A stretch of DNA of 64,000 nt from Candidatus Altiarchaeota archaeon (lineage in GTDB: Archaea; Altiarchaeota; Altiarchaeia; IMC4; SCGC-AAA252-I15), in assembly GCA_043813075.1 (NCBI GenBank), contig JBDRLL010000010.1, positions 110,037 through 174,036 on the forward strand, given 5' to 3'. The translations under genes were made by a program, and so were the position numbers. Positions 982 through 29,817 of the stretch are shown here, one piece after another (the first letter of the stretch is position 1; each line of letters opens with the position of its first letter). The notes beneath the pieces are model-generated. The model did not search any database, had not been told where the DNA came from, and saw only the letters and a program-made list of their open reading frames with translations.

Positions 982-982
982 T

Positions 983-2005: not shown

Positions 2006-2012
2006 CCTAAGT

Positions 2013-2948: not shown

Positions 2949-2998
2949 GTTAACACCAGTGGTTTAACTATATGTAGTGTAATTTAAATCCATCCTTC

Positions 2999-3568: not shown

Positions 3569-3585
3569 CATGCAACACTATTCTG

Positions 3586-7558: not shown

Positions 7559-7598
7559 GGATATATCTTTCGAAATCGTCTTATAATACTCTTGTTGA

Positions 7599-9419: not shown

Positions 9420-10841
9420 ATGAAAATCACGCTTCTTTATCCGAAAAAATCCGATGAATACGTGGGATACCTGCCCTCCCCTCCTTATGGTCTGCTATGC
9501 CTTGCGGGAGTCTTACTCCGGGAAGGCCATTCTCCAAATGTTGTTGACTTGAACTTTGTGGGTGAGTCGGAGGCTATTGGTCGTATTAACGGCTCTGATG
9601 CGGTAGGCATCTACGCATCAATCGACGTATACTGGGAGGCGTTAAGGCTGGCTAAGGTGTCGAAAGGCTGCCGCAAGTTCGTTATCCTTGGCGGGCCGCA
9701 GGTCACTGCCTTCCCTGGGATGGCTCTTGATTGCCCTGACGTTGATGTTGTTGTTCTGGGCGAGGGTGAGGCGACGATAATTGATTTAATCGGCTGTTTG
9801 GTTGAGGGCGGGGATTTGTCGGTGGTTGATGGCATCGGTTTCAAACGGGATGGTGCTAAGGTTTTCACCCGGAAAAGGGGTTTTATCAGTGATATTGATG
9901 CGTTGCCTCTCCCCCCGTTCCACCTGCTTCCCATACAGGATTACTTGGCTTATTGGCGTAAAAACTATGGGTACACTGCCATCAACATTGTCACCAGCAG
10001 GGGATGCCCGTACAACTGCATATACTGTTCCAAACAGACATTCGGGGGTTTATACCGTGCCAGATCGCCAATCAGTGTCGTGGACGAGATGGAGCATATC
10101 AATGGAGCTTATCATCCTAGCGTTATCGTTATCCAGGACGACCTCTTTCTCCTCGACAGGAGGCGGGTCATCGGCATTTCCAAGGAGTTGATTGCCAGGG
10201 GACTGGCGGTGAGTTGGGTTTGCACTGCAAGAGTTGATATGGTTGATGGGGAAGTTTTGGGGTGGATGAGGAAGGCTGGTTGTGTTATGATAAACTATGG
10301 TGTTGAGTCTGGCTCTGAAAGGATGCTGGAGTATCTCGGCAAGGGCACACATAGGTCTCAGATAGTTTCCGCGTTCAAGCTGACAAAGGATGTTGGAATA
10401 AAAGCTGGCGCGTTCATAATGATCGGGATACCCGGTGAGACTGTTGAGGATATCGGGGAGACGGAGTCTCTGATACGGGAGATACGCCCTGACTGGATGA
10501 ACGTCACGTTCTTCACGCCCATACCCGGTAGTCGTGCTTGGTCTGAGCTGGTTGGCGGCGAGGACTTTGGTGGGGAATTTGTGGTGGATTTTAACTTCAG
10601 GACGTTCAGTCAGAGATACAATTTTTCGAATATGAGCGAATCAGAATTGAATAATGCTCGGGCAAGGATTAGGAGGGATCATTTCCTCAGGTCCGTATTA
10701 TACCGGGTGATTAATGCCATCCGAAGGCCCAGTATCATGTTCTCCTATCTCAGGAAGCTTATGGTCTTCCTGTCTTCGGGTGGTGGGTTCCGATTGAACA
10801 CGTTTGTAAAGAGTAATCTTACCTGGTTTTACAAGGATTGA
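9420..10841 (+). CDS. B12-binding-domain (class B) radical SAM enzyme, paralog 2
   Basis: 473 aa. YGLLCLAGVLLREGHSPNVVDL N-domain and TSRGCPYNCIYC triad. The ATG directly abuts the TAA of the upstream GT-C-like gene. Confidence 0.85.
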   Translation: MKITLLYPKKSDEYVGYLPSPPYGLLCLAGVLLREGHSPNVVDLNFVGESEAIGRINGSDAVGIYASIDVYWEALRLAKVSKGCRKFVILGGPQVTAFPGMALDCPDVDVVVLGEGEATIIDLIGCLVEGGDLSVVDGIGFKRDGAKVFTRKRGFISDIDALPLPPFHLLPIQDYLAYWRKNYGYTAINIVTSRGCPYNCIYCSKQTFGGLYRARSPISVVDEMEHINGAYHPSVIVIQDDLFLLDRRRVIGISKELIARGLAVSWVCTARVDMVDGEVLGWMRKAGCVMINYGVESGSERMLEYLGKGTHRSQIVSAFKLTKDVGIKAGAFIMIGIPGETVEDIGETESLIREIRPDWMNVTFFTPIPGSRAWSELVGGEDFGGEFVVDFNFRTFSQRYNFSNMSESELNNARARIRRDHFLRSVLYRVINAIRRPSIMFSYLRKLMVFLSSGGGFRLNTFVKSNLTWFYKD

Positions 10842-11645: not shown

Positions 11646-13853
11646 TCATGTTGTTGTTTTGGTTATGTTGTATATCCATATTGAGTATCCTATATTGTCC
11701 ATTGGCTCGTGTTTTCTAAGCCATTCATAGCAGTAGGGGTCTCCGAATTGCCCTGTCCTACTGGTGGTGCTGACAGCCAGCAAGCCTTCTACAGGGCCGC
11801 ATTCAATCCCTGATTTTTTCTGTGCTGACATTACGTCCTGGTTGTTCGGCATTGACGTGTACCTTATCCCGTGTTCTTCTATTCTTGCGGTGCCGAAGTA
11901 TGCTAGTTTTATCTCCTTGATATCGTTCTCATCCATGTACCTTTTGAGTCCAGGCAGGTCTTGGCCCCAGTCGATATTGGAGTCTGAAGCGTATTTGTAG
12001 CCGTTCTCCGGACCTCCTATCGCCTGGTTAAAGTATGATATGTAGTGCGGGTGGTATATTAGTGTTGGGAGTATGGATAATGCGACAATCAGGTATGCGA
12101 ATCTCCTTGATGTCCGGCTCTTATTTAATAGCGCTTTCAATGGTTCTGCTAATAGCAGGTATATCAACGGGAAGATGAATAACACAAGTCTTATCCCCGT
12201 CAGTATTGTCGAGGAAATGATTATCATGCATGCGATAATGATGTTCAGTATAAGGTAAATCCTGAACGAGGATAATTCCTGGTTGGTTGCCCCCCTTTTT
12301 TTTTGCTTAGAGAAAAAGTAGAATATCGACAAGAAGGACAGTATTATAACGCCTTCCGGCGTTTTTATCAATAGTGTGGTTGCCCAATAATCCAATCTAT
12401 CCCTGATGCTGACGGGCTCCCTTTTCTTTATTGCCTCGTCTTTCACCAAGCCCGGTTTTATAGCCCCTATTACGCTATTCGATAGTAATGCATTCTTTAT
12501 ATAGCCTGCGTGCCCCACGTCCATGTGGATCTTTGTTCCGAATAACATGTACAGGTAATAGTCCGATAATGGGACCTTGAGTTTGACGATATTATCCCTC
12601 AATCCATTATCCAACCTCTCATCCTGGAAGAAGCGGACATCCTTTATTATGTATTCCCCCCAGTTATGGAGCCAGTCATAATTCATCTCATTGAAAAAAT
12701 ATCCTGCGTTCACAGTCGTCCCAGCGAATAAGACAATCATCACGTACGGCATGAGGCGCCTTAATAACGGCAAAAACCAAGATGCAGTCCTGAAGAAAAC
12801 CTTTTTTCTCGTGTCAGAGTATAGAATCCAGGATAACGTCAGCAATGAAGCGTAGGCTATTATCCTCTTGTCACCGCCATTGTATACTGCCACGCAACTA
12901 AGGGCGATAAAAACCAGGAGGCTGATAAGCAGAATCAAATCCCTGGCTCGGATCTCCTTAAATGCCCCTGCTCTAATGGCTGGCCTGGATTTACCAATCT
13001 TCCTGGGAAGAACAAGGAGTCTACTGACGGCATTAACAGACCTTCTAAGACCCCATATACCGAATCTCACGGCTATTATCGAGGAATACAGTATGACCAG
13101 GTATATGCTGGATACCTTGCTGAGTAGCGCTAGTCCCAGTGTGACTCCCGTAATAACGCCCGCGAGCACGCTCTTCTTCTCCATGAACCTGGTGAAATAG
13201 TAGAAGGATATCAGGTTGAAACATACGGGGGCAATATCAGTTGTGGCTAGCCTGGCGTGAGCCAATATGTTCGGGTTTAACGAGAATAGTGTTGTTATCA
13301 AACAGGCCGTCTCGAATCCGTAATACCTTTTTGCGAATATGAACAGGTATGTGCTGCATAATATCAGTAGCAAGAGCGTTGAATATCTGGAATAGTACAA
13401 AAGGTTGTAGGGCCTGTATTCCTCTGCGTATAGGAATTTTTGGCTGAATTTTTCTGGATATTCCCTCCTCAATTCCTCTATGCCGTATAATCCTCTTGGG
13501 GGGTAGACTGTCAGATTTTCTTCATCCACCTCAAACAGTTCTTTTCCAGGGAAATCTCCTGTTAAATCATAAATGTAGAATGGTATGCTGCTAACGTAAT
13601 ATGATAGTGGAGGGTGCACTACTACCGGGATGAAGCTGGTGTAGTTAATCCAGGGTTTGTCCCACTGCTTAACCATGTAATAACCCGTCCCAATATAATA
13701 CGCCTCATCCCACACCGCTGATTTTTCCCTTATGCTTGTAGTGCCAATCAGCAGGATGACCATGGATAGCGAGGTTAAGAATATGAAATCCCTTCTGACT
13801 CCACTACTCTTCTTTATATCTGACGTAGTCCTTCTTCTGGAGGCCATGATCAT
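11646..13853 (-). CDS. GT-C glycosyltransferase, PMT_2/ArnT-like (GT39/83-type)
   Basis: 735 aa, polytopic. First-loop WDEAYYIGTGYY acidic motif typical of PMT/ArnT-type enzymes. The large C-terminal part contains NIDWGQDLPGLKRY. Confidence 0.7.
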   Translation of the reverse strand: MIMASRRRTTSDIKKSSGVRRDFIFLTSLSMVILLIGTTSIREKSAVWDEAYYIGTGYYMVKQWDKPWINYTSFIPVVVHPPLSYYVSSIPFYIYDLTGDFPGKELFEVDEENLTVYPPRGLYGIEELRREYPEKFSQKFLYAEEYRPYNLLYYSRYSTLLLLILCSTYLFIFAKRYYGFETACLITTLFSLNPNILAHARLATTDIAPVCFNLISFYYFTRFMEKKSVLAGVITGVTLGLALLSKVSSIYLVILYSSIIAVRFGIWGLRRSVNAVSRLLVLPRKIGKSRPAIRAGAFKEIRARDLILLISLLVFIALSCVAVYNGGDKRIIAYASLLTLSWILYSDTRKKVFFRTASWFLPLLRRLMPYVMIVLFAGTTVNAGYFFNEMNYDWLHNWGEYIIKDVRFFQDERLDNGLRDNIVKLKVPLSDYYLYMLFGTKIHMDVGHAGYIKNALLSNSVIGAIKPGLVKDEAIKKREPVSIRDRLDYWATTLLIKTPEGVIILSFLSIFYFFSKQKKRGATNQELSSFRIYLILNIIIACMIIISSTILTGIRLVLFIFPLIYLLLAEPLKALLNKSRTSRRFAYLIVALSILPTLIYHPHYISYFNQAIGGPENGYKYASDSNIDWGQDLPGLKRYMDENDIKEIKLAYFGTARIEEHGIRYTSMPNNQDVMSAQKKSGIECGPVEGLLAVSTTSRTGQFGDPYCYEWLRKHEPMDNIGYSIWIYNITKTTT

Positions 13854-15412: not shown

Positions 15413-16957
15413 TCACCTCCCTATCCTGTCCCTGAACCACAGGTATTCCTTCACCACCCTCTCAATGCCTAGTGATATGAGTACTGGTATGAACATCGCG
15501 AAAGGCAGGTAGTATCTAATCCAGTCTATGTGAAATACTGAGCCTACTGTCAGTAGGACTATGAGTATCAGCATCCCAAGTATGCTGTAGTCTCCCACAA
15601 ACCCGCCGGCAACCTCGGTTCTAATGCCCCTGAAAAGTCTCAATGCCCCGAAGTACACGAAGAGCAGGTGGAATGCGTAATAGGCGGGGGGTGTTGGAAA
15701 ATAGTCTGAGTCAAGCAGTATGCCCCTGAAAAACAGGTAGAATACCCTCTTAACCAAAAAGTCTATCCTGGTGGGCTCAGGCTCTATGTTGTGTTGCATC
15801 CTGATTAGCCTGACTCTATGCAATATCATGTTGTAGGTGTTTCCAACCGGGTCGGAGTAGAGGTACGGGTTGAGGCAGACGAAGGCGAATGCAAAGGATG
15901 ATGACACCAGCAGCCCGATTATTGCCGTGTTGATTATCCTGGCTTGGGGGAGGCGTCTGCCTGCGGCCAACGCTTTTATGCTGCCGATTAACGCATACCA
16001 TGCAAGGAGGGTGAAGATTGTCATGATCATGAAAGCCGCGCTGAATTTCACGCTCAAAGCCAATCCTGTTGAGACGCCGATCATAGAGGAGATTAATGCT
16101 GCTTTAAGGGTTACTCTTCCCTCCTCCTGGGTGGCCCTCATTTTTTCAAAAAGTTTGAATGCGAGTATCACTGTTATGAGGGAGAAAAAGCAGTATATCA
16201 TGTCCGGCAGGACCATCTGTGATGTGGGGGTTGTTATCCCGTTAACCAGGAATATCTCGCCGCCTATGAACGATGCTATCCTGCTTTGGTGGATCATGTG
16301 GCAGATTATCATGACGAGAACTGCTGAAATCACCGAGAACGCGAATATTGTCTTTCGTGCCGTGATATAGTCTTCATAGCTTATCCGGGTTATTTCTGTT
16401 CCCTTCACGTAATCCATCATGTACTCAAGGTACTTTATGTCGTCGTCTACCTCAGAGTAACCCCTTTTTCCCGTCTCATTCGAGATGCCCTTGAGTGTCG
16501 GGAAATAATACAGCATTGTTGAACTGTTATGCCATGATATCATCCCGCCGCTGGAGTTGACGACCTTGTGGTTGAAGACGTCCAAAGAGAATCCGAGCAC
16601 GAACTTGCCTAGGTTCGGCTGGTCGTATACCAATGGACTATGCCAATCCTCGTGGGAAAGGTCTCTCTTCTTGAAAAACAGGTAGTACATGTACGTGTTG
16701 TGCATCCAGGATATCTCATCGATATGCCGTATCCTGTATGCCGGAAATTCGAACAGTTCCCTGGTGTTCTCCACGAAGCCTATATTCTTGAGGTAGAATC
16801 CATGATCCTCCCAGTAAACGCCATCGCTTATGTGAAATACTGTCGCTAGGAATAGGATTACGAGAATCACGTCGATGAGCCTGTCATTGAGCCTTCTATG
16901 CGTATCTGTCTTGTCTTCCACGATACATCTTATTAGTCCATAAAAATTAATATTCAC
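15413..16957 (-). CDS. Polytopic membrane protein, GT-C-like (paralog of 7599-9419)
   Basis: 514 aa. SDGVYWEDHGFY acidic loop; alignable with 7599-9419 throughout (FLVNGITTPTSQMVLPD vs FLSNGITIPTFQLVLLD). The track start is a GTG; an alternative GTG lies at 16921. Confidence 0.6.
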   Translation of the reverse strand: MNINFYGLIRCIVEDKTDTHRRLNDRLIDVILVILFLATVFHISDGVYWEDHGFYLKNIGFVENTRELFEFPAYRIRHIDEISWMHNTYMYYLFFKKRDLSHEDWHSPLVYDQPNLGKFVLGFSLDVFNHKVVNSSGGMISWHNSSTMLYYFPTLKGISNETGKRGYSEVDDDIKYLEYMMDYVKGTEITRISYEDYITARKTIFAFSVISAVLVMIICHMIHQSRIASFIGGEIFLVNGITTPTSQMVLPDMIYCFFSLITVILAFKLFEKMRATQEEGRVTLKAALISSMIGVSTGLALSVKFSAAFMIMTIFTLLAWYALIGSIKALAAGRRLPQARIINTAIIGLLVSSSFAFAFVCLNPYLYSDPVGNTYNMILHRVRLIRMQHNIEPEPTRIDFLVKRVFYLFFRGILLDSDYFPTPPAYYAFHLLFVYFGALRLFRGIRTEVAGGFVGDYSILGMLILIVLLTVGSVFHIDWIRYYLPFAMFIPVLISLGIERVVKEYLWFRDRIGR

Positions 16958-16961
16958 CTAG

Positions 16962-18494
16962 ATGATGTTGCACGCCACAAATTCCAGATCATTCTCCGTC
17001 TTGCTCTGCATTATACTCTCATTTAACCTCATCAACTCCATGTTCCACGTCTTAAACGCCGAATTCGATCACGACGAATTCCAGCACATGCACATAGCCT
17101 GGAACATACTGGCTGGTAAAGTCGTGTACCGGGATTTCTTCGACCACCATGGCCCCCTATTCTCAATGCTTAACGGATTCTTCCTCAGGCTGCTGGGCAT
17201 TGAAGCATCAGTATCCACTCTCTTTTACCTCAGGGCAACCAGCCTCCTGTACATGTCACTGACACTGTATCTTACGTTTAGGATAGCCTCCGAAGCCTTA
17301 GAGTCAAGGCAGGCAGGCCTTTTGTCGGCGGCAATACTCTCCGGGCTGCTCGTATTCCAACTCAAGTCAACCGAGTTTCGGCCTGACGTCCTCCAGTCTG
17401 TCCTATGGCTTTCAGGACTGTATGTCGTTCTGATGGATTCTGGTGGGGGCTGGAGGAGTCGCCTCTTCCTGGCGGGGATTCTGTTTGGTGGCGTGGTGAT
17501 GACCACAATGAAGGGTGTTGTCGGCGTCGCATCAGTCATACTCTACTACCTCGTAGTTTGTCTAAGGGGTGTCCAAGAATGTGGGCAGTGCACCCGGAAT
17601 ATCCTGTCACTGATTTCAGGCATGCTCGTAGTGTTCCTACTGTTATGCATATACTTCCTCTCTTACGGCGCTCTAAGCGAATTCATCTACTATAACACAT
17701 GGTTTAACCTTCATGCGTTCATGAACCATAATAACGATAATTTCTCGAGCATCATGTTATTCCTCATGGAAACCCAGCCCCTCTTCGTGGCCGCCGGCCT
17801 TGGAGGCCTTTTGATGTTGGGTTGGGGACTTATTATCCCAGGCTCCCGCGGTCCTGGCTATTCGAGGAGGCTGTTGCTGTTCACGTCCTCCCTGGTTGCT
17901 GTTTTTTCCGCGCCACTTGGATTGTATCCGCAGCATTACCTCCTCATACTGCCCCTGTTGTCTGTCACTTCCGCATACGCCTTCCTCTGGCTTAAGCAGG
18001 CTCTTGAAGACGTTAATTCCACTGGCTTCTTATACGTCTTCTCCCTGTTCTTCTTTTTTGCCAGCATGATATTCGCTTCAGTCAGCTATACCCCCTATGC
18101 TCCTTCAGACATCCTAATCAGTCAGGTTGAGCTCACCGAGTTCATCCTCCGGAACACTTCACGCGATGAGCCGGTGCCTTTGCTCGTGTGGAACAATTGC
18201 GGCGGGTTCGTATTCAACGAAGACATCCAGTACTACTGGTCTTCCAGCATGGATATGGAGGATGTCTTTGAGATGGATGAGGGTTATGACGTTTTTGGCG
18301 AGCACCTGACCCGTCTCATGGGGGAGAAAAAAGTTAGGTATGTGCTGTCAGAGGATGTTGACACTTCACGCTACGACCAATGGTATGTGGGACACATTAT
18401 ATACCGTGGTACGCCGCCTGAGACAAGGAGGTATGTCGCGGAAAACTTCCATCAAGGCGAAAACCCGTGCCTATGGATACGTAATAACGCGTGA
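16962..18494 (+). CDS. GT-C glycosyltransferase, PMT_2/ArnT-like
   Basis: 510 aa, polytopic. N-terminal loop EFDHDEFQHMHIAWNILAGKVVYRDFFDHHGPL is a typical acidic DxDE-type loop of ArnT/PMT_2 proteins. Confidence 0.65.
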   Translation: MMLHATNSRSFSVLLCIILSFNLINSMFHVLNAEFDHDEFQHMHIAWNILAGKVVYRDFFDHHGPLFSMLNGFFLRLLGIEASVSTLFYLRATSLLYMSLTLYLTFRIASEALESRQAGLLSAAILSGLLVFQLKSTEFRPDVLQSVLWLSGLYVVLMDSGGGWRSRLFLAGILFGGVVMTTMKGVVGVASVILYYLVVCLRGVQECGQCTRNILSLISGMLVVFLLLCIYFLSYGALSEFIYYNTWFNLHAFMNHNNDNFSSIMLFLMETQPLFVAAGLGGLLMLGWGLIIPGSRGPGYSRRLLLFTSSLVAVFSAPLGLYPQHYLLILPLLSVTSAYAFLWLKQALEDVNSTGFLYVFSLFFFFASMIFASVSYTPYAPSDILISQVELTEFILRNTSRDEPVPLLVWNNCGGFVFNEDIQYYWSSSMDMEDVFEMDEGYDVFGEHLTRLMGEKKVRYVLSEDVDTSRYDQWYVGHIIYRGTPPETRRYVAENFHQGENPCLWIRNNA

Positions 18495-18505
18495 TCATGC
18501 CCTGT

Positions 18506-19996
18506 TCATTTCAGCACACCGTATACAGTGATCTTACCGTCTGAGACTATCCTCTCCAGGTGGCTGAAGTCAGTGATATTGGCGTGCCAACCCTGCTGGT
18601 GCACCACATAGTCCACCCCGTACTGGTCTATTATCCTGTTGAAGTCTTTCTCTCTCGAGGGTATCTGCACTGCCCTAGCGTTGAACACGTAGTTCACGTA
18701 ATACGGGAAGTTGGCCATCACAACGTCTTCTTCCCCAACCCTGCCTTCGAGCATCACGAGGGCAGGGTATATGCCATCAAAGGTGTTGGACATGAAGTAG
18801 ACTGCTGAAGTGATGTTGATCAGGACCATGAGGCAGATGGAGGTCACGTAAGTTATCCTCCCAATCCTGTCCCTGTATAACTTGAATTTATCCACGAAGA
18901 AGAGCTCAAAAACAATCGCGGACGCTATGGAGAAGAATGGGACCAGCGGATAAAGGTATCTGACCCTGCCGAATGTTGTTGAAGTCATCAGGAAACTGAG
19001 GATGAAGTATGCGAGTATGCTAGCCCAAAATTCCCTCCTACCTGCAACGCGTTTATACAAGTCCCTCACCATAAGCAACCCCAGGCCGAAGACAAGCGGG
19101 TTGGGGGTGAAGAACACGCACCCTCCCACCAGGTTTATGCAGTTCATAAGAACCCAGACGCAGGTCTCCGTGTTTATCCTGCCCAGTATCATACTCCCTA
19201 TCGATTCGTTTATCTCCAGTCTTGAGAATAATTCATCCTCCCTCATCGGTATTAGGAATCCTATGGCGTGAAAGTGGTTGTAGAAGGGGTTTCCAGTGCT
19301 GGCGTAATTTCGGTACAGCCATGGCGAGGAGACAACCAGTGCGACGAGGACGACAGTCAATGCCCTGCCGACCCCATTCCTAGCCCCTGCCTTGAGGGAG
19401 TAATAGATGAATACTACTGGTATGAGCACGAAAGCGGATATCCTGGTTAGGTATGCTAGTCCTAGGGCAACCCCTGTTATGACAAGCCCCCTCACGCCAT
19501 CAAACTTAATCATCAGGTAAAGCGTCAGCAGAACAAAGAAGCTGAAGACCGTGTCTGAAAGAACCTGGGGCAGGTAAGTCAGCGCGTAGACGTTCCCTGA
19601 ATAGAATACCGCGGAGACGATTGAAATCCTCCCCGACCCTGTTAACTCCAGTGCGATAATATACACGAGCCCCGCTATCAGGCTTTCGAAGAGGATGTTG
19701 ACAAGCTGCGCGCTATAAATGCCGGGGCCGAATATCCTGAATGATAATGCCGTCAAATACAGGTATACCGGCTGCCGGAAGTAGTATGTCATGGGGAATG
19801 AGTCAGACCTAAGTATCAGAGGCCATATAACGTCTACCACCAGGCCCCTGCCCTCGTAGATGCTTTTCGCGATTGCTAGGTGGTGGTATGAGTCGTAATA
19901 CAGATTCCCAATTATCGCGTATTTCCAGACCAGTATCAGCCTGAAAACCAGGTTCAATGCCACAATAAGCAGGATTATCTTGTGGTTGCGCTTCAT
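18506..19996 (-). CDS. GT-C glycosyltransferase, PMT_2/ArnT-like
   Basis: 496 aa, polytopic. YYDSYHHLAIAKSIYEGRGL loop follows TM1. It lies directly downstream of the two tandem radical-SAM genes. Confidence 0.6.
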   Translation of the reverse strand: MKRNHKIILLIVALNLVFRLILVWKYAIIGNLYYDSYHHLAIAKSIYEGRGLVVDVIWPLILRSDSFPMTYYFRQPVYLYLTALSFRIFGPGIYSAQLVNILFESLIAGLVYIIALELTGSGRISIVSAVFYSGNVYALTYLPQVLSDTVFSFFVLLTLYLMIKFDGVRGLVITGVALGLAYLTRISAFVLIPVVFIYYSLKAGARNGVGRALTVVLVALVVSSPWLYRNYASTGNPFYNHFHAIGFLIPMREDELFSRLEINESIGSMILGRINTETCVWVLMNCINLVGGCVFFTPNPLVFGLGLLMVRDLYKRVAGRREFWASILAYFILSFLMTSTTFGRVRYLYPLVPFFSIASAIVFELFFVDKFKLYRDRIGRITYVTSICLMVLINITSAVYFMSNTFDGIYPALVMLEGRVGEEDVVMANFPYYVNYVFNARAVQIPSREKDFNRIIDQYGVDYVVHQQGWHANITDFSHLERIVSDGKITVYGVLK

Positions 19997-20033: not shown

Positions 20034-21401
20034 TCACTCTCCAGAGGTTCTGGTATTGTCGCAGGACCTTCTCATATTCCTTAGGCAGAATGACTCTGGT
20101 CGGCCGGCCGGGTTGTCCGCGTATAGGGTGCAGGTGTCCGTGAAATCCAGGTCAATGTTGTGCCTGTCATGGTATCTGCCGAGCATGATGCTGAGTATGC
20201 CTCCCGTATTCGAGGATGATGGCGGCTTGCCCAGCATGGATTCAACCGCGAGCTTAAGGCTCTTTAAGGCGAATGGTCTAGCATGCCTGTTGGACAAGAC
20301 GCCCGCCAAAATCTTAAAGAACGGGAATTTCCTCATAAGCCAGAACCTACCTGCCAATGATTCGCCCTCAATCATCCCATTCAACTCCAGTAGTCTACTG
20401 TTGACCTCCTTCAAGTCAATGATCCTGTTTATCGGTACTGGAACGTTGTCTACCACGATACTATAGCATCTTACCTCGCATTTCGGGCTTCTCCTGCCAG
20501 AGCCGCCGAACACCTTCCGCAGCACTTCGAAGAAACCATAGCTGAAGCGGGTGCTATCAATGAAGTCTTCCTCGCTTATGCCGTAATGCCTGTATAATAT
20601 GTCTATCATATGGGAGTGGGAGAAGACGTCTGGATCGTATGGGCCGTTAAGGTCCCACATGCTCTGGAAGTTGACGATTCTCACAGTCCTGCTGTTCTCC
20701 ACAGCATAGTCTGTGATCTTCTTCACCTGGTCTTCATTCACACCCCTCCTGATTATCGCGTTAATCTCAGTGGTCACGTTCAATTCAACCAGGTTTTCCA
20801 GCGTCCTCATCTTATGATCGAGGACGTCACTGCCATAAAGCATCTTGCATTGTTCCCTGTCAAAACTGTAGAATGATAGTATCACCAGGTCAACGCCTGC
20901 ATCCTTCAAGCCAGCCACATAATCAATGTCCCTCGTCCTAACACCGTTGGTGAACAACACCACGTTCTTACCCTTGTCTTTCACGGCCTTGATTATCTCA
21001 GGCAGGTCTTCCCTCAGTGTTGGCTCTCCCCCGCAGAGATACACTGAGGATCCTCTGAAGCCATCAATCCTCGAGATGATATCCTCCACGCTCGGCTCAT
21101 CATCTAATGTCCCTCCTGTTTGCGCGAAGCAGTGGGGGCACCCCATATTGCAGTCGAGCGTCACGTCTATCACTAGGCCGTCAGGGTCTCCGGACTCCCC
21201 CCGCCCCAGTAGGCTGCTCATATTCCAATACAGTCCAGGGCTCTCGTAGAAGTGAAGGGCCTCAAACTCGCCGTGTTCCCCGCATTTCTTGGAGATCCGC
21301 ATCCTACCGTCCTTCTCGAATACTATTGCGTCAATCTCCTTCCTGCAGGTCGGGCACAGGCTCCTCGTCTTCCTGGTTTCCATATCTTCATCCACCATCA
21401 T
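20034..21401 (-). CDS. Radical SAM enzyme, Tes/GDGT-MAS-like architecture (paralog B)
   Basis: 455 aa. SLCPTCRKEIDA...KKCGEHGEF, CNMGCPHC, GGEPT, CEVRC, DTCTLYADNPAGRPESFC. An alternative start, METRK, lies at 21383. Confidence 0.75.
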   Translation of the reverse strand: MMVDEDMETRKTRSLCPTCRKEIDAIVFEKDGRMRISKKCGEHGEFEALHFYESPGLYWNMSSLLGRGESGDPDGLVIDVTLDCNMGCPHCFAQTGGTLDDEPSVEDIISRIDGFRGSSVYLCGGEPTLREDLPEIIKAVKDKGKNVVLFTNGVRTRDIDYVAGLKDAGVDLVILSFYSFDREQCKMLYGSDVLDHKMRTLENLVELNVTTEINAIIRRGVNEDQVKKITDYAVENSRTVRIVNFQSMWDLNGPYDPDVFSHSHMIDILYRHYGISEEDFIDSTRFSYGFFEVLRKVFGGSGRRSPKCEVRCYSIVVDNVPVPINRIIDLKEVNSRLLELNGMIEGESLAGRFWLMRKFPFFKILAGVLSNRHARPFALKSLKLAVESMLGKPPSSSNTGGILSIMLGRYHDRHNIDLDFTDTCTLYADNPAGRPESFCLRNMRRSCDNTRTSGE

Positions 21402-22713
21402 TCATTGAATATATGTGGTCCATGTCCAAGTCCTCCAGTCTCTTCCTTCCAGTCGAGAATATGTTGTTCTCGCAGAACGTCAATGTACCCCTCTCAGAGT
21501 CGGAGTATAGGTTGCACGTGTCTATGAGATTATAGTCTGCGTTGTATCTGGTCTGTGATGGGTTCACCACGATACCTATCATGCCTGGCACATTGTCTTT
21601 GAACTTTCCACCAAATAGTATCGCATTAAGGAAGCTGGCGGACAATCTTACCATGATTGGGATGAGTCTGGAGTCAAACAATATCCTCCGTTTCATAATG
21701 TTCAGGAATAGGCTGGGGAAGGAGTTGCTCTCATTCAAGGCAGTCGTCATCCCCTCCAAATCCAGCATCCTATTCAATGGGGTAAAAACACCTTCTCTCA
21801 CATGGGCATAGCATACCGCCTCGCATAATGCAATACCTTTCCTGTCCACCCTCACCCTGCTTAGGAAGCTGGTGAGTGTGACATCAAACATTGTGTTGGA
21901 GATGAAATCATCTTTAGTGATGCCCAACTCGCTTATCCTGCTGAATATGTCATCGTTCCTAACAAATTTCCTGTCGAAGCCGGCAGCTCCTTCCGGGGAT
22001 ATGGGGCAGAACAATACCGTCCTCATCCCGTCTGACATTTCACCTGCGAGCTCTAATATGGGCTTCACCTGGCTTTCATTCAAGTCCTTAACGATAACCA
22101 CGAAGAAGGACAGCCATATGCTCGTGCCTTCAAGCGATTTCATAGCCTTCCTCTTGACGTCCAACAACCTCATGCCCCTCATCCTCTCGTTAATCCCGTC
22201 GTCCATGGAGTCCAACTGCAGGAGCACTCCATCCAGCCCCGCCTCGTCAAGCTTCCTTGAGAGTGTTTCATCAAGCAGCAGTCCGTTCGACAAGAGTATG
22301 ACCCCGAAGCCCCTTTCCTTCAGGCTCCTGACGATATCCGGCAAGTCCTCCCTCATCGTGGGCTCGCCACCGTACAACAGGATGTTCCCCCCACCCCACA
22401 TCCCAGCCTTCCCGATTATATCCTCAATCACCGGCTCTTTTTTCGCGGTGTTGAAGCAGAATGGGCAGTTCATATTGCACTTGTCTGTAACGTCTATCGT
22501 CATGTCCTTTATCGGAGGGTTCAGCCAAGCATCAGAGATTCTCAGCATGTTCTCGTACATATACGGGTCGTCCCATGCATGAGGGCATTCAAAAATACCG
22601 TGGTCAGCGCACTCCCTTGACACGATGACAACGCCATCCTTGATGCTGATTTCACCGTCAAGCTTCTTCAGGCAGACCGGGCATAGACTTCTCGTTCTGA
22701 CAGGCTCCATCAT
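21388..22713 (-). CDS. Radical SAM enzyme, Tes/GDGT-MAS-like architecture (paralog C)
   Basis: 441 aa. SLCPVCLKKLDG...RECADHGIF, CNMNCPFC, GGEPT, CEAVC, DTCNLYSDSERGTLTFC. Confidence 0.75.
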   Translation of the reverse strand: MMEPVRTRSLCPVCLKKLDGEISIKDGVVIVSRECADHGIFECPHAWDDPYMYENMLRISDAWLNPPIKDMTIDVTDKCNMNCPFCFNTAKKEPVIEDIIGKAGMWGGGNILLYGGEPTMREDLPDIVRSLKERGFGVILLSNGLLLDETLSRKLDEAGLDGVLLQLDSMDDGINERMRGMRLLDVKRKAMKSLEGTSIWLSFFVVIVKDLNESQVKPILELAGEMSDGMRTVLFCPISPEGAAGFDRKFVRNDDIFSRISELGITKDDFISNTMFDVTLTSFLSRVRVDRKGIALCEAVCYAHVREGVFTPLNRMLDLEGMTTALNESNSFPSLFLNIMKRRILFDSRLIPIMVRLSASFLNAILFGGKFKDNVPGMIGIVVNPSQTRYNADYNLIDTCNLYSDSERGTLTFCENNIFSTGRKRLEDLDMDHIYSMNDGG

Positions 22714-22775
22714 ATCGCCTTTATTTACCTTTTATTTGATAAAATATTACTGTCCTGACGTTCAGGTGATTTTTA

Positions 22776-23603
22776 GTGGATATTTTAGCGTATCTCACAG
22801 GATTTTATCGGATAAAAGATTGGGTCCACCTCCTAGGTCTGGGTTTCATAGGCCTATCCTACTCCAGTCCCTTCCCCCCTGATGATGGGGCCATACTGGC
22901 GTGTGGCATAGTGTCATCACTATACCTTGCATTCGGTTACTCATCAAACACTCTATTCGAGGAGCACATGGGGAAATCATTAGGCTGCCGTCAGCTACTC
23001 CTCTCAATGCTGCCAGCCGCAGTCGGCTTGGCATTCTCCTATCATCTCTCACCCCCACTGGCTTTCCTATACTCCATTGGGGTTCTGTTTGGCATACTCT
23101 ACTCTGCCCCCCCAGTAATGGCGAAAGGCATGCCTGTAATCGAATTGTTCTTCAACTCACTACTATTCACCCTGATATTCCTGTTCGGCGTTGTGTTGGG
23201 TGGCGGTTCTGCGAGCAGTGACGTCCTGTTTTTCTCAGCATTCATCTTCATCATGGTCATCCCATTCCAGCTCGTGCAGGAACTCACGGACATGGACCAT
23301 GACGCGTCAAAGGGCATCAAGACGACTGCAGTGCATATGACGCCCAAGGCAGTCAGGCTTATGATGGTTGCGGCCATACTCGTTATCCTACTGTTCTCAG
23401 TGGTCATGCCGCCGTGGGTTGGGTTGGACTGGAGATTCACGGTGGCCACCATCCTGTTCGGATTATCGTTTCTGCCTTCAACTAGAATGCCATCTGCCAG
23501 TGGGAATGCGGACTATGGGCGATTAAGGATTGGCCTTAGATACGCTGGCATCGCATATGGTCTGTTGCTGGTATTACTGCTCTCTATTAAGCAGGGTTTT
23601 TGA
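22776..23603 (+). CDS. UbiA-superfamily prenyltransferase-like membrane protein with an atypical first Asp-rich motif
   Basis: 275 aa, about 8 TM segments. LYSAPPVMAKG and the second motif DMDHDASKGIKTTAV (DxxxDxxxGxxT) fit UbiA. The first-motif position reads SSNTLFEEHMG instead of NDxxDxxxD. GTG start. Confidence 0.55.
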   Translation: MDILAYLTGFYRIKDWVHLLGLGFIGLSYSSPFPPDDGAILACGIVSSLYLAFGYSSNTLFEEHMGKSLGCRQLLLSMLPAAVGLAFSYHLSPPLAFLYSIGVLFGILYSAPPVMAKGMPVIELFFNSLLFTLIFLFGVVLGGGSASSDVLFFSAFIFIMVIPFQLVQELTDMDHDASKGIKTTAVHMTPKAVRLMMVAAILVILLFSVVMPPWVGLDWRFTVATILFGLSFLPSTRMPSASGNADYGRLRIGLRYAGIAYGLLLVLLLSIKQGF

Positions 23604-23608
23604 CTGAG

Positions 23609-24277
23609 TCATACGCGCAGCCTCTTTGTCGGAGGGTATTTGTTGATGAAGAAATCCTTTATCTCAGACAGCCTGCCTTCTTCCGGTAGCGTGGTGACCT
23701 GCATCAGGCGGTCTTCACTAACCCACGTGTATCCTGGCATTCCAAGCTTGCTTACTGTCTTAGCGATCATGTTGTCGAATTCTGGTTTAATCTCCGTGTT
23801 GACGGCGTTTATATGGTCCTCGTAATACGTGCCTTTCGTGCTTACTATGAAGTAGTACTTCTTACCGTCAACATCATACTCTGCCACCACAAACTCGAAT
23901 CCGGTGTTTGTGTCCTCATCACCCTCCACGTAGAATATCCCCACGAACATAAGTCCTGCGGGAAGCTTATCTTCTATTATATATCTGGTTAGAAAGTCCT
24001 TCTCAACATCACTGGTCTCGCCAGTGTCCTCCAGGCTACTGCCCCTATAAATCATCTTCCTCACTGGCATAACATCTGAATCGACTGAATTATTGACTCC
24101 AGACTCTGTCGTGGGGGCTGATACGAACGTATATGCTATTATGAGTACTGCAACGACTCCCACAATGACCAGCGGCATCTTGCTGGATGAACTACCATCG
24201 CTTATCTCCCTGCCTTCAACGATTGTCGGTATGTCAATCCCCACGGTAACATCACCCTCTACTGGTATTCTATTCAA
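23609..24277 (-). CDS. Single-pass membrane-anchored protein, unknown family (paralog of 10859-11593)
   Basis: 222 aa. TM segment LVIVGVVAVLIIAYTFV and C-terminal FINKYPPTKRLRV. Confidence 0.6.
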   Translation of the reverse strand: MNRIPVEGDVTVGIDIPTIVEGREISDGSSSSKMPLVIVGVVAVLIIAYTFVSAPTTESGVNNSVDSDVMPVRKMIYRGSSLEDTGETSDVEKDFLTRYIIEDKLPAGLMFVGIFYVEGDEDTNTGFEFVVAEYDVDGKKYYFIVSTKGTYYEDHINAVNTEIKPEFDNMIAKTVSKLGMPGYTWVSEDRLMQVTTLPEEGRLSEIKDFFINKYPPTKRLRV

Positions 24278-25517: not shown

Positions 25518-26675
25518 TTAAAGAGGCGTGAGCTCGGTTATCAAGGCATCCCACGTGGGGTATTCCTCCACAACCGCCGGCTTCAATCCCATCTCCCTGA
25601 TTTTTCCGGCCAGCTCCTCCGCAATCCAGGCGCCCGTCAGTATCCTAAGCCTTTCAGCGTCCACCTCAATCAGCGCCCCATCGACTCCATAATCCCTCAT
25701 CAGCCTACGCCTAACTGACTCGAGTCTTCTCTTAATCCTCGCCTTCCCCCCAACACTGATCCTGTCAAGTTTTTTGGCGTAGTCAAAGGATGGCATAGTC
25801 TCCTCAAGGTATACGGCACCCCTGATGAGGAGTCCGTCATCGGTTACTATGTCATACTCCCTGGAAACATTCCCCGCCCTTCGTTTCAACCGGTTCTTCA
25901 GTTGTACTCCATCCTTAAGTCTGACCGTGCAGTAGTGGACTCCCAGTCTCGTGTTCCTCAGGCAGTAATCCAGTATCTTTCCAGCCGCCTTCTCGCTTCC
26001 CTTCACTGCGAAAGACACGTCGCTCTCAGCAAAGTAGCCCCGTTTTTCTAATGGCAGGGCGTTGGTTTCAGACACTTCAAGCTGGTTTATGTTCAGGAAT
26101 TTGACACCCAGTTCGTCTATGGCGTGTATGAACGACTTCGTCTCCCTAACGCGTCCTGGTATCGCGGGTATCTCGCATCCCACATCCCACCCGTACTCCA
26201 GGGCATTCCTGGCGGCACCCAAGTCCGCGTTCCCCCCCTCAATGAAATCCGGATGGAATCGTATCTCATCAAGCCCTGCCTTATATAGTCTCTCAAGGTT
26301 TTTCTGGGTCGCGTGCCTGCAGGTCGTGTAAAGGTGTATGTGGAAGCCTTCCCCAAAATTCTTCTTCAAGAGCCTTATGTAATGCAGCGTCCTATCCAGC
26401 CTGCACAACGGGTCTCCCCCTGTTATGCCCGCGCCAAGCGAGTCGCATAGCCTCGCCTCCTCCAGCACGTCCTTGTCCCTCCTAACCCACCACTCGTTTG
26501 CTACGACAACGTCCCTACCCCTCTTTCGCTCCGATAGCGGACAGTACCAGCAGCTGCTTGAACAGACTCCCGTCGCAAGCAACACAAGCTTACCGCCCTT
26601 AACGCAGATACTGCAACCCTTAGGCAGTCTGCCTATGCGCTTGCTGTAGTATGGGGTCTCAACAATCTTTCGCAT
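25518..26675 (-). CDS. Radical SAM protein (PFL-activase-related, COG2108-like)
   Basis: 385 aa. CSSSCWYC CxxxCxxC triad and ITGGDPL. It sits between dnaK and dnaJ. Confidence 0.7.
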   Translation of the reverse strand: MRKIVETPYYSKRIGRLPKGCSICVKGGKLVLLATGVCSSSCWYCPLSERKRGRDVVVANEWWVRRDKDVLEEARLCDSLGAGITGGDPLCRLDRTLHYIRLLKKNFGEGFHIHLYTTCRHATQKNLERLYKAGLDEIRFHPDFIEGGNADLGAARNALEYGWDVGCEIPAIPGRVRETKSFIHAIDELGVKFLNINQLEVSETNALPLEKRGYFAESDVSFAVKGSEKAAGKILDYCLRNTRLGVHYCTVRLKDGVQLKNRLKRRAGNVSREYDIVTDDGLLIRGAVYLEETMPSFDYAKKLDRISVGGKARIKRRLESVRRRLMRDYGVDGALIEVDAERLRILTGAWIAEELAGKIREMGLKPAVVEEYPTWDALITELTPL

Positions 26676-26681
26676 GTTAAC

Positions 26682-27077
26682 CTACTTCTCGAATCTGAGC
26701 AGTTCACCAGTCTTGATTAAAACCTGTTTTTCAGTAAAATCTGTTGAAAAGATTTCCTTTAAGATCGAAAACAGGTTTACCCTAGGGCCGTCAGATTCCT
26801 GACCTCCCTCAGCCTTTATGTTAATCCCGATTTTATCGCCAGGATACGCGTGCTCCAGCACGTCATGATGCTTCTCCATCGACTTGGCGACGTACGTGAT
26901 GCCATTATGGACACACTTATAGCCCGGCTCGATCATCCCTGAAACAACCTCTCCAACGATTATCGTGCCGACACCAGCTATCCTATACGTCTTGTCGACA
27001 GTGAACTCCCCGAAACCTCTGGATGAACCAGACTCTGCATTAAGACGCCTCTCCACCTCATCAACAGATGAAACCAT
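26682..27077 (-). CDS. Stand-alone EF-Tu/EF-1alpha domain-2-like beta-barrel protein
   Basis: FTVDKTYRIAGVGTIIVGEVVSGMIEPGYKCV...AYPGDKIGINIKA matches the GTP_EFTU_D2 pattern. The ATG at 27075-27077 is 2 nt after the dnaK stop; the track start is an overlapping GTG at 27083. Confidence 0.6.
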   Translation of the reverse strand: MVSSVDEVERRLNAESGSSRGFGEFTVDKTYRIAGVGTIIVGEVVSGMIEPGYKCVHNGITYVAKSMEKHHDVLEHAYPGDKIGINIKAEGGQESDGPRVNLFSILKEIFSTDFTEKQVLIKTGELLRFEK

Positions 27078-27079
27078 GT

Positions 27080-29005
27080 TCACTTCTTCTCGTCTTCACC
27101 TACCTTGTAGTCTGCGTCAACAACGTTATCATCACTCCTGCCTTCATCCTCTTTCTTGGATTCTCCGCCCGCAGCCTGCTGCTCCTGCTGATACTTCTGG
27201 GCAGCCTCCTGATACATCTTGGTGAACAACTCCTGGCTGCTCTTGCTTAGTTCCTCGCTCCTGGACTTTATCCTCTCAACATCCCCTGATTCTATGGCCT
27301 CGCGGACTCCCTTCACCTTCCCCTCAAGATCCTCCTTCTGCTTCACATCAACCTTGTCGCCGACCTCCTTCAAGGCCTTCTCAACGCCATAGGCAAGAGT
27401 CTCGGCGTTGTTCACGGTATCCGCCTTCTCCTTCTTCTTCTTGTCCTCGTCGGCGTGCTCTTCAGCCTCCTTCTGCATCCGCTTTATGTCGCTGTCAGTA
27501 AGGCCTGATTTGGCGTGTATCGTTATGGCCTGCTGTTTTCCTGTCGCAAGGTCTCTGGCGGAAACGTTCAGTATCCCGTTAGCGTCTATCTTGAAGGTCA
27601 CCTCAACCTGCGGTATCCCCCGGGGTGCTGGTGGGATGCCGGTCAACTGGAATTTACCGAGGCTCTTGTTGTCCTCAGCCATCTCACGGTCTCCCTGCAG
27701 CACGTTGATTTCGACCGAGGTCTGGTTGTCCGCAGCAGTCGAAAACACCTGCTTCTTCTCGGTCGGTATAGTAGTGTTCCTCTCAATAAGCCTTGTGAAA
27801 ACCCCGCCAAGAGTCTCTATGCCCAGGGACAATGGCGTAACATCCAGTAATAGCACGTCCTTCACTTCCCCGCCCAAGACGCCCGCCTGTATAGCAGCCC
27901 CAACGGCCACAACCTCATCTGGATTAACGCTCTTGTTGGGTTCCTTCCCGAAAATCTTTTTCACAGTATCTACGACGGCAGGCATCCTAGTCTGCCCGCC
28001 AACCAGAATCACCTCGTCAATCTCAGACAGCTTCAGGCCAGAGTCAGCCAGAGCCTTCTTGCACGGTTCGATGGTCTTGTCAATCAGGTCTCCAGTCAGC
28101 TGCTCCAGCTTCGACCTGGTCAAGGTTATGTTCATGTGCAGTGGCCCGGACTCTCCCTGAGTGATGAACGGGAGGTTCACTTCAGTCTTTGTTGTTGAAG
28201 ACAACTCTATCTTTGCTTTTTCGGCCGCATCCTTCAGGCGCTGTAGGGTCATGTTGTCCTCCCTCAGATCTATTCCATTGTCCTTCTTGAATTCCTCTGC
28301 AAGCCATTGTATGATTTTGTAGTCGAAGTCGTCTCCGCCCAGGTGGGTGTTGCCGTTGGTGGACTTGACTTCAAAGACTCCGTCACCCACCTCCAGTATG
28401 CTTATGTCGAACGTACCGCCGCCAAGATCGTATACCGCAATCTTCTCCTCCTTCTTCTTGTCCAAACCGTAAGCAAGGGACGCTGCGGTAGGCTCGTTGA
28501 TTATCCTCAAGACCTCAAGCCCCGCAATCTTGCCTGCATCTTTGGTCGCCTGCCTCTGGCTGTCGTTGAAGTATGCTGGCACGGTTATGACTGCCTGTGT
28601 TATCTCCTCCCCCAGGTATGCTTCAGCATCTGCCTTCAGCTTCTGCAGTACCATGGCTGAAATCTCGGGTGAGGCATAGTCCTTACCGTCGACCTTGATT
28701 CTTATGTCGCCGTTTGACGCCTCAATAATCTTGTAGGGTATTGTCTTCTTGATCTCTTTCATCTCAGCGTCCTTGAACTTCCTGCCGATGAACCTCTTCA
28801 CACTGTATATGGTCTTATCAGGGTTTGTTATGGCCTGCCTCTTAGCCACCTGCCCGACCAGCCTCTCGTCGTCTTTTGTGAACGCAACTATCGACGGCGT
28901 TGTCCTGTTCCCCTCCGCGTTTGGTATGACCTCCGGCTTCCCAGCCTCCATCACTGCCATGCACGAGTTCGTAGTCCCCAAATCTATTCCCAGTATCTTA
29001 CTCAT
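27080..29005 (-). CDS. dnaK: Chaperone DnaK (Hsp70)
   Basis: 641 aa. [17 protein letters not shown] and [11 protein letters not shown] signatures. Confidence 0.97.
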
Positions 29006-29743: not shown

Positions 29744-29817
29744 GGGCTGGTAGTCTAGTCGGTTATGACGTCGCCTTTACGAGGCGAAGATCCCCGGTTC
29801 GAATCCGGGCCAGCCCA
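29744..29817 (+). tRNA. tRNA-Val (anticodon UAC)
   Basis: Manual cloverleaf: acceptor GGGCTGG/CCAGCCC, D arm GTCT-AGTCGGTTA-TGAC, anticodon arm TCGCC-TTTACGA-GGCGA (TAC), T arm CCCGG-TTCGAAT-CCGGG, discriminator A. 74 nt, no encoded CCA, no intron. Confidence 0.9.

Follow-up and report, generated by a model that had tools for sequence, protein, structure and literature searches.

The diversity of archaeal lipids, which feeds palaeoclimate proxies and ideas on membrane evolution, has been matched to genes only in part. The radical S-adenosylmethionine (SAM) enzyme GDGT-MAS holds a rubredoxin site (C9X2C12X20C33X2H36), a cluster on C73/C77/C80 and a His ([Fe4S4]N), the radical SAM cluster and a further cluster ([Fe4S4]C) with a labile Met439; both Met439 and Tyr459 are reported to be invariant among 1000 archaeal homologues (PMC9433317). 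In the UbiA-family protein AfUbiA, Mg2+ is bound by N68, D72, D198 and D202 only, and D76 makes no metal contact (PMC4106721); the UbiA-fold phosphoribosyltransferase (PRTase) Rv3806c functions with a single Mg2+ that Asn73/Asp77 alone bind (PMC10994848). Among the lipids of Altiarchaeota are extended archaeol and extended tetraethers, the latter amounting to <0.5% of the glycerol dialkyl glycerol tetraether (GDGT) GDGT-0 at the one site studied, and only one bona fide tes gene, searched for with a >50% identity filter, was found in Ca. Altiarchaeum (PMC13003381). Here we analyse a 64,000-nucleotide (nt) stretch of a Candidatus Altiarchaeota contig (JBDRLL010000010.1, positions 110,037 to 174,036; hereafter the window), in which two tandem Tes-like radical SAM genes diverge from a UbiA-like gene. 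Two known superfamilies are represented there by a new variant, arranged as a conserved cluster: a Tes-like clade with a different metal-cluster complement is joined to a UbiA subfamily without the third Asp of its first motif. We tentatively read the region, with a probability of about 0.45, as the core of a conserved, uncharacterized isoprenoid-lipid tailoring cluster of Altiarchaeota and related uncultured archaea. The central genes are as follows, in window positions.

21388–22713, minus strand: paralogue C, GDGT-MAS-fold radical SAM protein of the C-type, 441 aa, with Pfam Zn_ribbon_HMPTM and Radical_SAM
20034–21401, minus strand: paralogue B, GDGT-MAS-fold radical SAM protein of the A/B-type, 455 aa as the longest open reading frame (ORF), with Zn_ribbon_HMPTM and Radical_SAM
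3586–5010, minus strand: paralogue A, third GDGT-MAS-fold radical SAM protein, A/B-type, 474 aa, with Zn_ribbon_HMPTM and Radical_SAM
22776–23603, plus strand: UbiA-like ORF, 275 aa, GTG start, Pfam PF01040

Tes-like paralogues stand outside the Tes equivalog

Scored against the NCBIfam models for Tes (NF045702, cut-off 450 bits) and TrsS (NF045646, cut-off 490 bits), paralogues A, B and C reached 197.1, 162.4 and 144.9 bits for Tes and 192.1, 160.5 and 154.9 bits for TrsS, all under the respective cut-off. Control Tes proteins (P0027, P0034, P0037, P0020 and P0092) scored 510–714 bits and TrsS controls 525–598 bits. The three copies have diverged far from one another (37% identity for A–B, 31% for B–C and 29% for A–C), and paralogue C and its orthologues share 40–56% identity. 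The sole full-length relative in the PDB was GDGT-MAS (7tol), which B matched at 4.6e-37 and C at 8.5e-31. The fold was tested on an AlphaFold2 (AF2) model of C alone, which had a predicted local distance difference test (pLDDT) value of 93.9 and matched 7tom in Foldseek with a template-modelling (TM) score of 0.81 over 488 alignment columns; the next match, MoaA (TM 0.38), covered the radical SAM core alone.

The cofactor motifs were then compared in A, B, C and 20 cluster paralogues from other loci. The rubredoxin-type C-X2-C-X20-C-X2-H motif and the radical SAM CX3CX2C motif (CNQKCPYC in A, CNMGCPHC in B and CNMNCPFC in C) were kept in all of them. The CxxxCxxC upstream of the radical SAM motif, which all Tes and TrsS controls have, was found in none, the approximately 22-residue segment bearing the [Fe4S4]N ligands being deleted throughout. 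Met439, the Met of MHFQD, was replaced in all (by R in A and B and by P in C), and Tyr459 was lost from the register. Three C-terminal Cys residues were conserved in register with the [Fe4S4]C ligands, and nearly all cluster paralogues gained a Cys four residues after the first of them (C-E-x-x-C-Y), which suggests that the C-terminal cluster is probably fully Cys-ligated. In paralogue C these motifs lie as follows.

22600–22683, minus strand: rubredoxin motif
22456–22479, minus strand: CX3CX2C motif
21808–21825, minus strand: CEAVCY

Directly after the rubredoxin motif, C-type paralogues share an extra C-x-H (FECPHAWDDP; 22570–22590 in the window, residues ~42–48). It is present in the C-type proteins of the window and of loci L001, L002, L004 and L014 (described below) and missing from A and B, with a similar FECLH in the D-type protein L014_8580; it may provide an additional metal ligand.

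A rough neighbour-joining (NJ) tree gathered the cluster paralogues into a single group, with Tes and TrsS outside it, and resolved orthologous C-, D-, E- and A/B-type subclades across genomes, that is, at least four paralogue types. Such long-diverged types fit the subfunctionalization that the original prediction, made from the letters of this DNA, had suggested for three Tes-like copies. Its assumption that these are tetraether-type C–C bond-forming enzymes is not supported: because they fall short of the cut-off and lack both [Fe4S4]N and Met439/Tyr459, A, B and C are GDGT-MAS-fold enzymes that are not members of the Tes equivalog.

The same features bear on whether the paralogues could be true tetraether or macrocycle synthases for unusual substrates such as C25-extended archaeol, yielding extended glycerol trialkyl glycerol tetraether (GTGT) or GDGT from an extended diether that the UbiA-like protein would supply. 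The model of C shows the GDGT-MAS fold in full, the nearest enzymes to the UbiA-like protein are those of the digeranylgeranylglyceryl phosphate synthase (DGGGPS) type, Altiarchaeota do make extended lipids, and a >50% identity filter would miss these paralogues. We nevertheless regard this explanation as unlikely, given the missing [Fe4S4]N and Met439/Tyr459 signature and the Tes scores of 145–197 bits against a cut-off of 450. Lipids at <0.5% of GDGT-0 would also be an odd match for an investment of three to four genes, and the cluster occurs in contigs of possibly non-Altiarchaeota archaea (L002 and L014) as well.

The UbiA-like protein and its metal-ligand motifs

The UbiA-like protein scored 65.9 bits against Pfam PF01040 (cut-off 34.2), in a match that spans profile positions 72–227 only, so that the first motif falls outside it. 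No NCBIfam equivalog was reached: the best model, PRK12884, gave 36 bits against a cut-off of 269, with lower scores for MenA (22.5 against 277), the DGGGP synthase model PRK12882 (21.8 against 296) and UbiA_proteo (16.9 against 275), and the heme O synthase model did not match. Foldseek of the AF2 model (pLDDT 95.5) placed AfUbiA first (4tq4, TM 0.73), with MjDGGGPS at 0.72 and ApUbiA at 0.71; further matches were UBIAD1 and the PRTase Rv3806c (8j8j, TM 0.67, rank 15). The Pfam score and the 8–9-helix UbiA fold, at TM 0.70–0.73 to AfUbiA, DGGGPS and ApUbiA, thus assign the protein to the UbiA superfamily.

A PDB search with the single sequence gave no real match and a profile was required; the profile of 44 relatives retrieved AfUbiA (4tq3, 1e-23) and the M. 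jannaschii DGGGPS (6m31, 5e-22). A word-indexed homology search returned the protein itself only, and a profile search returned 10 proteins, of which just two, P0244 and P0137, were strong relatives with most of the query covered. When 1.84 billion representatives were searched exhaustively with HMMER, 288 relatives were obtained at E<=1e-3, only 6 of them at E<=1e-30. As judged from sequence, the protein is a member of an unnamed UbiA subfamily with an N-x3-[D/E] first motif, and the scores support the suggestion, made in the original prediction, of a non-canonical UbiA as opposed to a standard DGGGPS, heme O synthase or MenA. We found no published account of this subfamily or of the Tes-like paralogues, which, with incomplete coverage of the literature, is weak evidence of novelty.

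Three motifs, all located where they had been predicted, were placed in register by profile alignment to 4tq3 (AfUbiA) and 6m31 (MjDGGGPS).

22947–22973, plus strand: first motif, N58-T-L-F-E62-E-H-M-G66 (NTLFEEHMG), degenerate, in register with the canonical N-x3-D-x3-D
23100–23126, plus strand: cap-loop motif YSAPPVMAK (Y109, S110 and K117), aligned to AfUbiA YSAPP-RFK
23289–23315, plus strand: second Asp motif DMDHDASKG, D172-x3-D176-x3-G, intact, aligned to AfUbiA D198/D202

The canonical first motif, N(D)xxDxxxD, is indeed absent. Alignment to AfUbiA and MjDGGGPS, which would have exposed an intact motif read in the wrong register, put an Asn and an acidic residue in register and confirmed that the terminal Asp is gone. 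The further claim that the Mg-diphosphate ligands are missing has to be given up. N58 and E62 align to AfUbiA N68 and D72, and D172 and D176 to D198 and D202, G66 being the equivalent of D76. By this alignment all four direct Mg-ligand positions are retained with one D-to-E change, and the absence of Mg ligands was rejected from the profile alignment together with the AfUbiA ligand data (PMC4106721). The state of each position was counted in a MAFFT alignment of 140 relatives.

Position 58: N in 134 of 140; N in the window
Position 62: D in 121 and E in 13; E in the window
Position 66: D in only 35; G in the window
Positions 109, 110 and 117: Y in 139, S in 129 and K in 132; all kept in the window
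Position 165: Q in 106; Q in the window
Position 168: H in 120; Q in the window
Position 169: E in 91; E in the window
Position 172: H in 84 and D in 55; D in the window
Position 176: D in 124; D in the window

The third Asp of the first motif is absent from all 13 cluster-linked homologues. Its loss is a trait of the whole subfamily and not a lesion in the window gene. The Mg/diphosphate positions are taken by N58, E62, K117, D172 and D176, and the conservation of these positions across the 140 relatives argues for selection on catalysis. With the ligand positions kept and the loss shared by the subfamily, the UbiA-like protein is probably active, as judged from N58, E62, K117, D172 and D176.

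A weakened or dead protein that serves as a scaffold, presenting membrane lipid substrates to soluble radical SAM enzymes, would account for the absence of a literal Asp-rich first motif, for the Gly at position 62 in the L008 homologue and for the His at 172 in 84/140 relatives; the translational coupling of UbiA with Tes-like genes seen in L014 and L018 also suggests a physical complex. We think this improbable, as N58 (134/140), an acidic residue at 62 (134/140), K117 (132/140) and D176 (124/140) form the pattern of an active diphosphate site, and active UbiA-fold enzymes are known that use only N-x3-D at the first site.

Most relatives also carry Q-x-x-H-E-x-x-H-x3-D at positions 165–176, before and within the second motif, a pattern similar to an HExxH metal site; in the window protein the corresponding residues are Q168-E169-x-x-D172.

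Conserved linkage across loci

Radical SAM-anchored loci were taken from the relatives P0003, P0006, P0008, P0012, P0013, P0014 and P0016. Their gene content is given below; B12-radical SAM denotes B12-binding radical SAM genes, and GT-C and PMT_2 denote glycosyltransferase (GT) genes.

L001 (Altiarchaeales Bin_400): four Tes-like genes, B12-radical SAM, UbiA, a small protein and DnaJ/DnaK; syntenic with the window
L002/L003: three Tes-like genes, then UbiA, then a 225-aa gene, in the same direction; plus B12-radical SAM
L004: two Tes-like genes, four GT-C, UbiA divergent from GT-C, a second UbiA of 526 aa, B12-radical SAM
L014: three Tes-like genes, then UbiA; 14-nt overlap of UbiA with the upstream Tes-like gene
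L015 (Altiarchaeota): UbiA, SPASM-radical SAM, Tes-like gene, PMT_2
L018: PMT_2 divergent from a Tes-like gene, then UbiA; 23-nt overlap of UbiA with the upstream Tes-like gene
L019: two Tes-like genes, UbiA, a 249-aa gene, Tes-like gene

A UbiA-like gene lay within ~6 kb of the radical SAM gene in 8/8 such loci (the window, L001, L002, L004, L014, L015, L018 and L019). The combination recurs in at least nine independent contigs, which argues for an association beyond chance; gene content was conserved between loci and gene order was not. The co-occurrence with Tes-like genes expected by the original prediction is therefore seen in many genomes. That prediction did not mention the B12-binding radical SAM genes (present in the window, L001, L002, L004 and L006), or that the linkage of the UbiA-like gene to GT-C genes (the window, L001, L004, L006, L008, L015 and L018) is about as consistent as that to Tes-like genes. 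The UbiA-anchored locus L009 repeats the divergent layout of a C-type radical SAM gene and a UbiA-like gene seen in the window.

This recurrence speaks to the simplest alternative, that an ordinary housekeeping DGGGP synthase and Tes are chance neighbours. Both superfamilies are core archaeal lipid enzymes, and NCBI labels the products only 'UbiA family prenyltransferase' and 'radical SAM protein'. Such a coincidence is very improbable: DGGGPS is missed by a wide score (21.8 bits against 296) and so is Tes (145–197 against 450), the radical SAM proteins have a clade of their own, distinct from bona fide Tes and from TrsS, and the linkage recurs in the nine or more contigs. Ordinary DGGGPS and Tes neighbours are largely refuted by the family scores and the NJ tree.

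Several loci held further genes of these superfamilies. In L004 the 275-aa UbiA-like gene is followed directly downstream by one for a second UbiA-family protein, of 526 aa (16380–17960, plus strand), with the UbiA domain in its C-terminal half; no NCBIfam equivalog was reached (best ChlG, 57.8 against 313). In L018 (positions 1–4793) a row of five SPASM-type radical SAM genes, together with two GT4 genes, lies upstream of the PMT_2/Tes-like/UbiA unit, and HxsD-like genes with further radical SAM genes nearby lie at 18244–21377 of L015; the genomes of L015 and L018 appear to bring several radical SAM systems together. Judged by neighbouring genes only, L014 carries archaeal-type genes and L012 looks bacterial. 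The more distant UbiA relative P0137 lies in this bacterial-looking contig (L012/L013, with QueA, TGT, YajC and SecDF), in an operon shared with B12-radical SAM, SPASM-radical SAM, a methyltransferase, a GT1 and a pair of large membrane proteins, one with weak similarity to PMT_2; the theme of UbiA, radical SAM and glycosyltransferase may extend beyond archaea.

Neighbouring genes and gene packing in the window

The genes around the central unit are listed below; assignments are from Pfam/NCBIfam scans (for the GT fragment, DnaJ and DnaK together with the ORF listing) unless another source is given. The remainder of the window consists of housekeeping genes.

5461–6165, plus strand: GT fragment
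6152–7906, minus strand: B12-binding radical SAM, class B
7599–9419, plus strand: GT-C (PMT-like) glycosyltransferase
9420–10841, plus strand: second B12-binding radical SAM
11646–13853, minus strand: GT-C (PMT_2) glycosyltransferase, 735 aa
14090–15016, plus strand: GuaA subunit (GMP synthase C-terminal, ATP-pyrophosphatase, stand-alone)
15413–16957, minus strand: GT-C (Pfam scan)
16962–18494, plus strand: GT-C (Pfam scan)
18506–19996, minus strand: GT-C/GT39 (PMT_2) glycosyltransferase, PMT_2 3.1e-13, NCBI name 'GT family 39'
23609–24277, minus strand: 222-aa membrane-anchored protein with one N-terminal hydrophobic segment
24362–25480, minus strand: DnaJ
25518–26675, minus strand: further radical SAM, 385 aa, weak matches to PqqE (26 bits) and HxsC (24 bits)
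27080–29005, minus strand: DnaK
29744–29817, plus strand: tRNA gene (Rfam RF00005, 70.8 bits)

Five GT-C genes thus lie in the window. An orthologue of the 735-aa one adjoins the UbiA-like gene in L006 and L004/L011, and orthologues of those at 15413–16957 and 16962–18494 adjoin it in L004, L008 and L011. This linkage favours the main rival to our reading, in which the UbiA-like protein would make a polyprenyl-phosphate-linked sugar donor, by analogy with Rv3806c in arabinan synthesis, the GT-C enzymes would use the donor, and tailoring of the carrier lipid or of the glycan-lipid product would fall to the radical SAM enzymes. In mycobacteria, Rv3806c feeds GT-C enzymes. Besides the five window genes, GT-C genes directly adjoin the UbiA-like gene in L004/L011, L006, L008 and L018, and weak GT-C-like matches stand beside UbiA in L002 and in the bacterial-looking L012. 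The N-x3-D pair and single Mg2+ of Rv3806c match a family that can dispense with the third Asp and, in many members, with D172, and 8j8j is a Foldseek match at TM 0.67. We hold this alternative to be doubtful, as Rv3806c is further away in sequence and fold than AfUbiA, DGGGPS, chlorophyll synthase and UBIAD1 are: the profile did not retrieve 8j8j at E<=1, its rank in Foldseek is only 15, and the NCBIfam DPPR-synthase model matches 3/44 relatives (~1e-6) and not the window protein. Moreover, the genes most tightly coupled to UbiA in L002, L014 and L019 are Tes-like ones, with no confident GT-C in the operon.

The packing of the central genes is as originally described. As the longest ORF (455 aa), B overlaps the stop of C by 14 nt; the start annotated by NCBI, Met7 at position 21383 (449 aa, MFH1403253.1), leaves a 4-nt gap, and with a Shine–Dalgarno-like GGTGGA 7 nt upstream it is the probable start. 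After B, the GT-C gene at 18506–19996 continues on the same strand across a 37-nt gap. On the other side, C and the UbiA-like ORF are separated by the expected 62-nt AT-rich divergent spacer (22714–22775; 71% AT against 49% for the window), which holds the TATA-like runs TTTATTT and AAAATATTA; an AGGTGA ribosome-binding site stands 7 nt before the GTG start of the UbiA-like ORF. A sigma-70 promoter and terminator scan gave nothing above shuffles and is not applicable to an archaeon, and an Rfam scan of the window matched only the single tRNA.

Neither B12-binding radical SAM gene matched a named NCBIfam equivalog (for 6152–7906 the best was BchE, 236 bits against a cut-off of 481). The mechanical ORFs at 6152–7906 and 7599–9419 overlap by ~300 nt at their 5′ ends; because the B12 domain match begins only at residue 140, the true starts are probably further downstream and the real intergenic region larger. 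Embedded among the GT-C genes, the GuaA subunit gene probably has a housekeeping role unrelated to them.

The 222-aa protein, encoded convergently to the UbiA-like gene, matched no family. Its position is conserved, with a homologue in the same place in L001 (27% identity over 134 aa by tblastn; 25% by MAFFT), and a gene of 225–249 aa follows UbiA in L002, L014 and L019, its similarity to the window/L001 group being weak. The 385-aa radical SAM gene sits inside the DnaJ–DnaK locus and is missing from the syntenic DnaK–DnaJ stretch of L001; a 133-aa ORF (26682–27083) lies between it and DnaK.

Proposed role of the cluster

Folds, motif states, the separation of the clade from Tes and TrsS, and gene linkage are established directly; we infer catalytic competence, a lipid substrate and a division of labour. 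The UbiA-like protein is most likely a working Mg2+-dependent intramembrane transferase. With the donor diphosphate held via N58/E62 and D172/D176, it would transfer an isoprenoid chain to an acceptor; its closest structural relatives are DGGGP synthase and AfUbiA. The Tes-like paralogues have the full GDGT-MAS architecture (rubredoxin domain, radical SAM core and C-terminal lipid-binding/cluster domain) and most likely abstract hydrogen from an unactivated lipid-tail carbon, with a different coupling or modification for each paralogue type. The B12-binding radical SAM enzymes would methylate or cyclize the chains, and the GT-C enzymes would add sugars at the outer face.

Several observations weigh against this proposal. 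Without [Fe4S4]N and Met439/Tyr459, the chemistry of the paralogues may differ substantially from C–C coupling, and Glu for Asp at a Mg ligand, with the loss of the third Asp, could lower or alter the activity of the UbiA-like protein. The linkage is incomplete in both directions. A narrow UbiA alignment used as a search query gave three loci from genomes and three from metagenomes, and the UbiA-anchored L006, L008 and L010 have no Tes-like gene in the available DNA; GT-C directly adjoins the UbiA-like gene in L006 and L008, and L010 has neither. Conversely, L016 and L017, with three Tes-like genes and B12-radical SAM, have no UbiA in range; the first gene of L016, suspected to be one, proved to be a radical SAM fragment. 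The steady GT-C linkage, last, fits a role in making lipid-linked sugar donors equally well.

A more specific version of the tailoring proposal is that the cluster makes cross-linked or membrane-spanning isoprenoid (glyco)lipids not yet tied to genes, for example the extended C45/C50 tetraethers of Altiarchaeota or a lipid that has so far escaped detection; this is conceivable, with the odds well against it. A new GDGT-MAS-fold clade, with two and not three [4Fe-4S] clusters and no labile Met, would then carry out several distinct radical couplings on chains placed by a UbiA one Asp short, and GT-C enzymes would decorate the products. As unusual extended tetraethers were recently reported from Altiarchaeota, with only one canonical tes, the cluster offers candidate genes. 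As a natural experiment, it also bears on which of the GDGT-MAS cofactors C–C coupling requires and on which UbiA motif residues are essential.

Comparison with known systems

With GDGT-MAS/Tes (MJ0619; PDB 7TOL/7TOM; NF045702) the paralogues share the three-part fold, the rubredoxin CX2C-X20-CX2H, the CX3CX2C and three C-terminal Cys residues. They differ in lacking the ~22 residues with C73/C77/C80 and His, in having Arg or Pro for Met439, in the extra C-x3-C-Y and in number (three to four paralogues per locus), and they are ~22–29% identical to bona fide Tes homologues. The radical SAM (seleno)protein TrsS (NF045646) belongs to the same superfamily, and the paralogues score against it (155–192 bits) much as they do against Tes; TrsS, however, keeps the N-terminal CxxxCxxC, has a different, shorter C-terminal region and forms a separate clade.

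The UbiA-like protein shares the YSAPPxxxK loop, the Asn and acidic residue of the first Mg site and D-x3-D with AfUbiA (a homologue of UBIAD1; PDB 4TQ3-6) and MjDGGGPS (6M31). It departs from them in reading N-x3-E-x3-G and not N-x3-D-x3-D, in its 16–19% identity in structural alignments, and in the family-specific Q165/H168/E169 before the second motif (Q168 in the window). The decaprenyl-phosphate phosphoribosyltransferase Rv3806c (8J8J/8J8K) has the same UbiA fold, an Asn/Asp pair (N-x3-D) and one Mg2+, but is a more distant match in fold and none in profile at E<=1.

At the level of whole clusters, the grs/gms/gmm and Ted-Hgs systems likewise co-locate radical SAM and B12-radical SAM enzymes acting on isoprenoid lipid tails (PMC11214058; bioRxiv 10.1101/2025.10.20.683597). 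Those systems use SPASM/Twitch or B12-radical SAM enzymes, with no UbiA or GT-C partner described, whereas the cluster reported here has multiple GDGT-MAS-fold paralogues.

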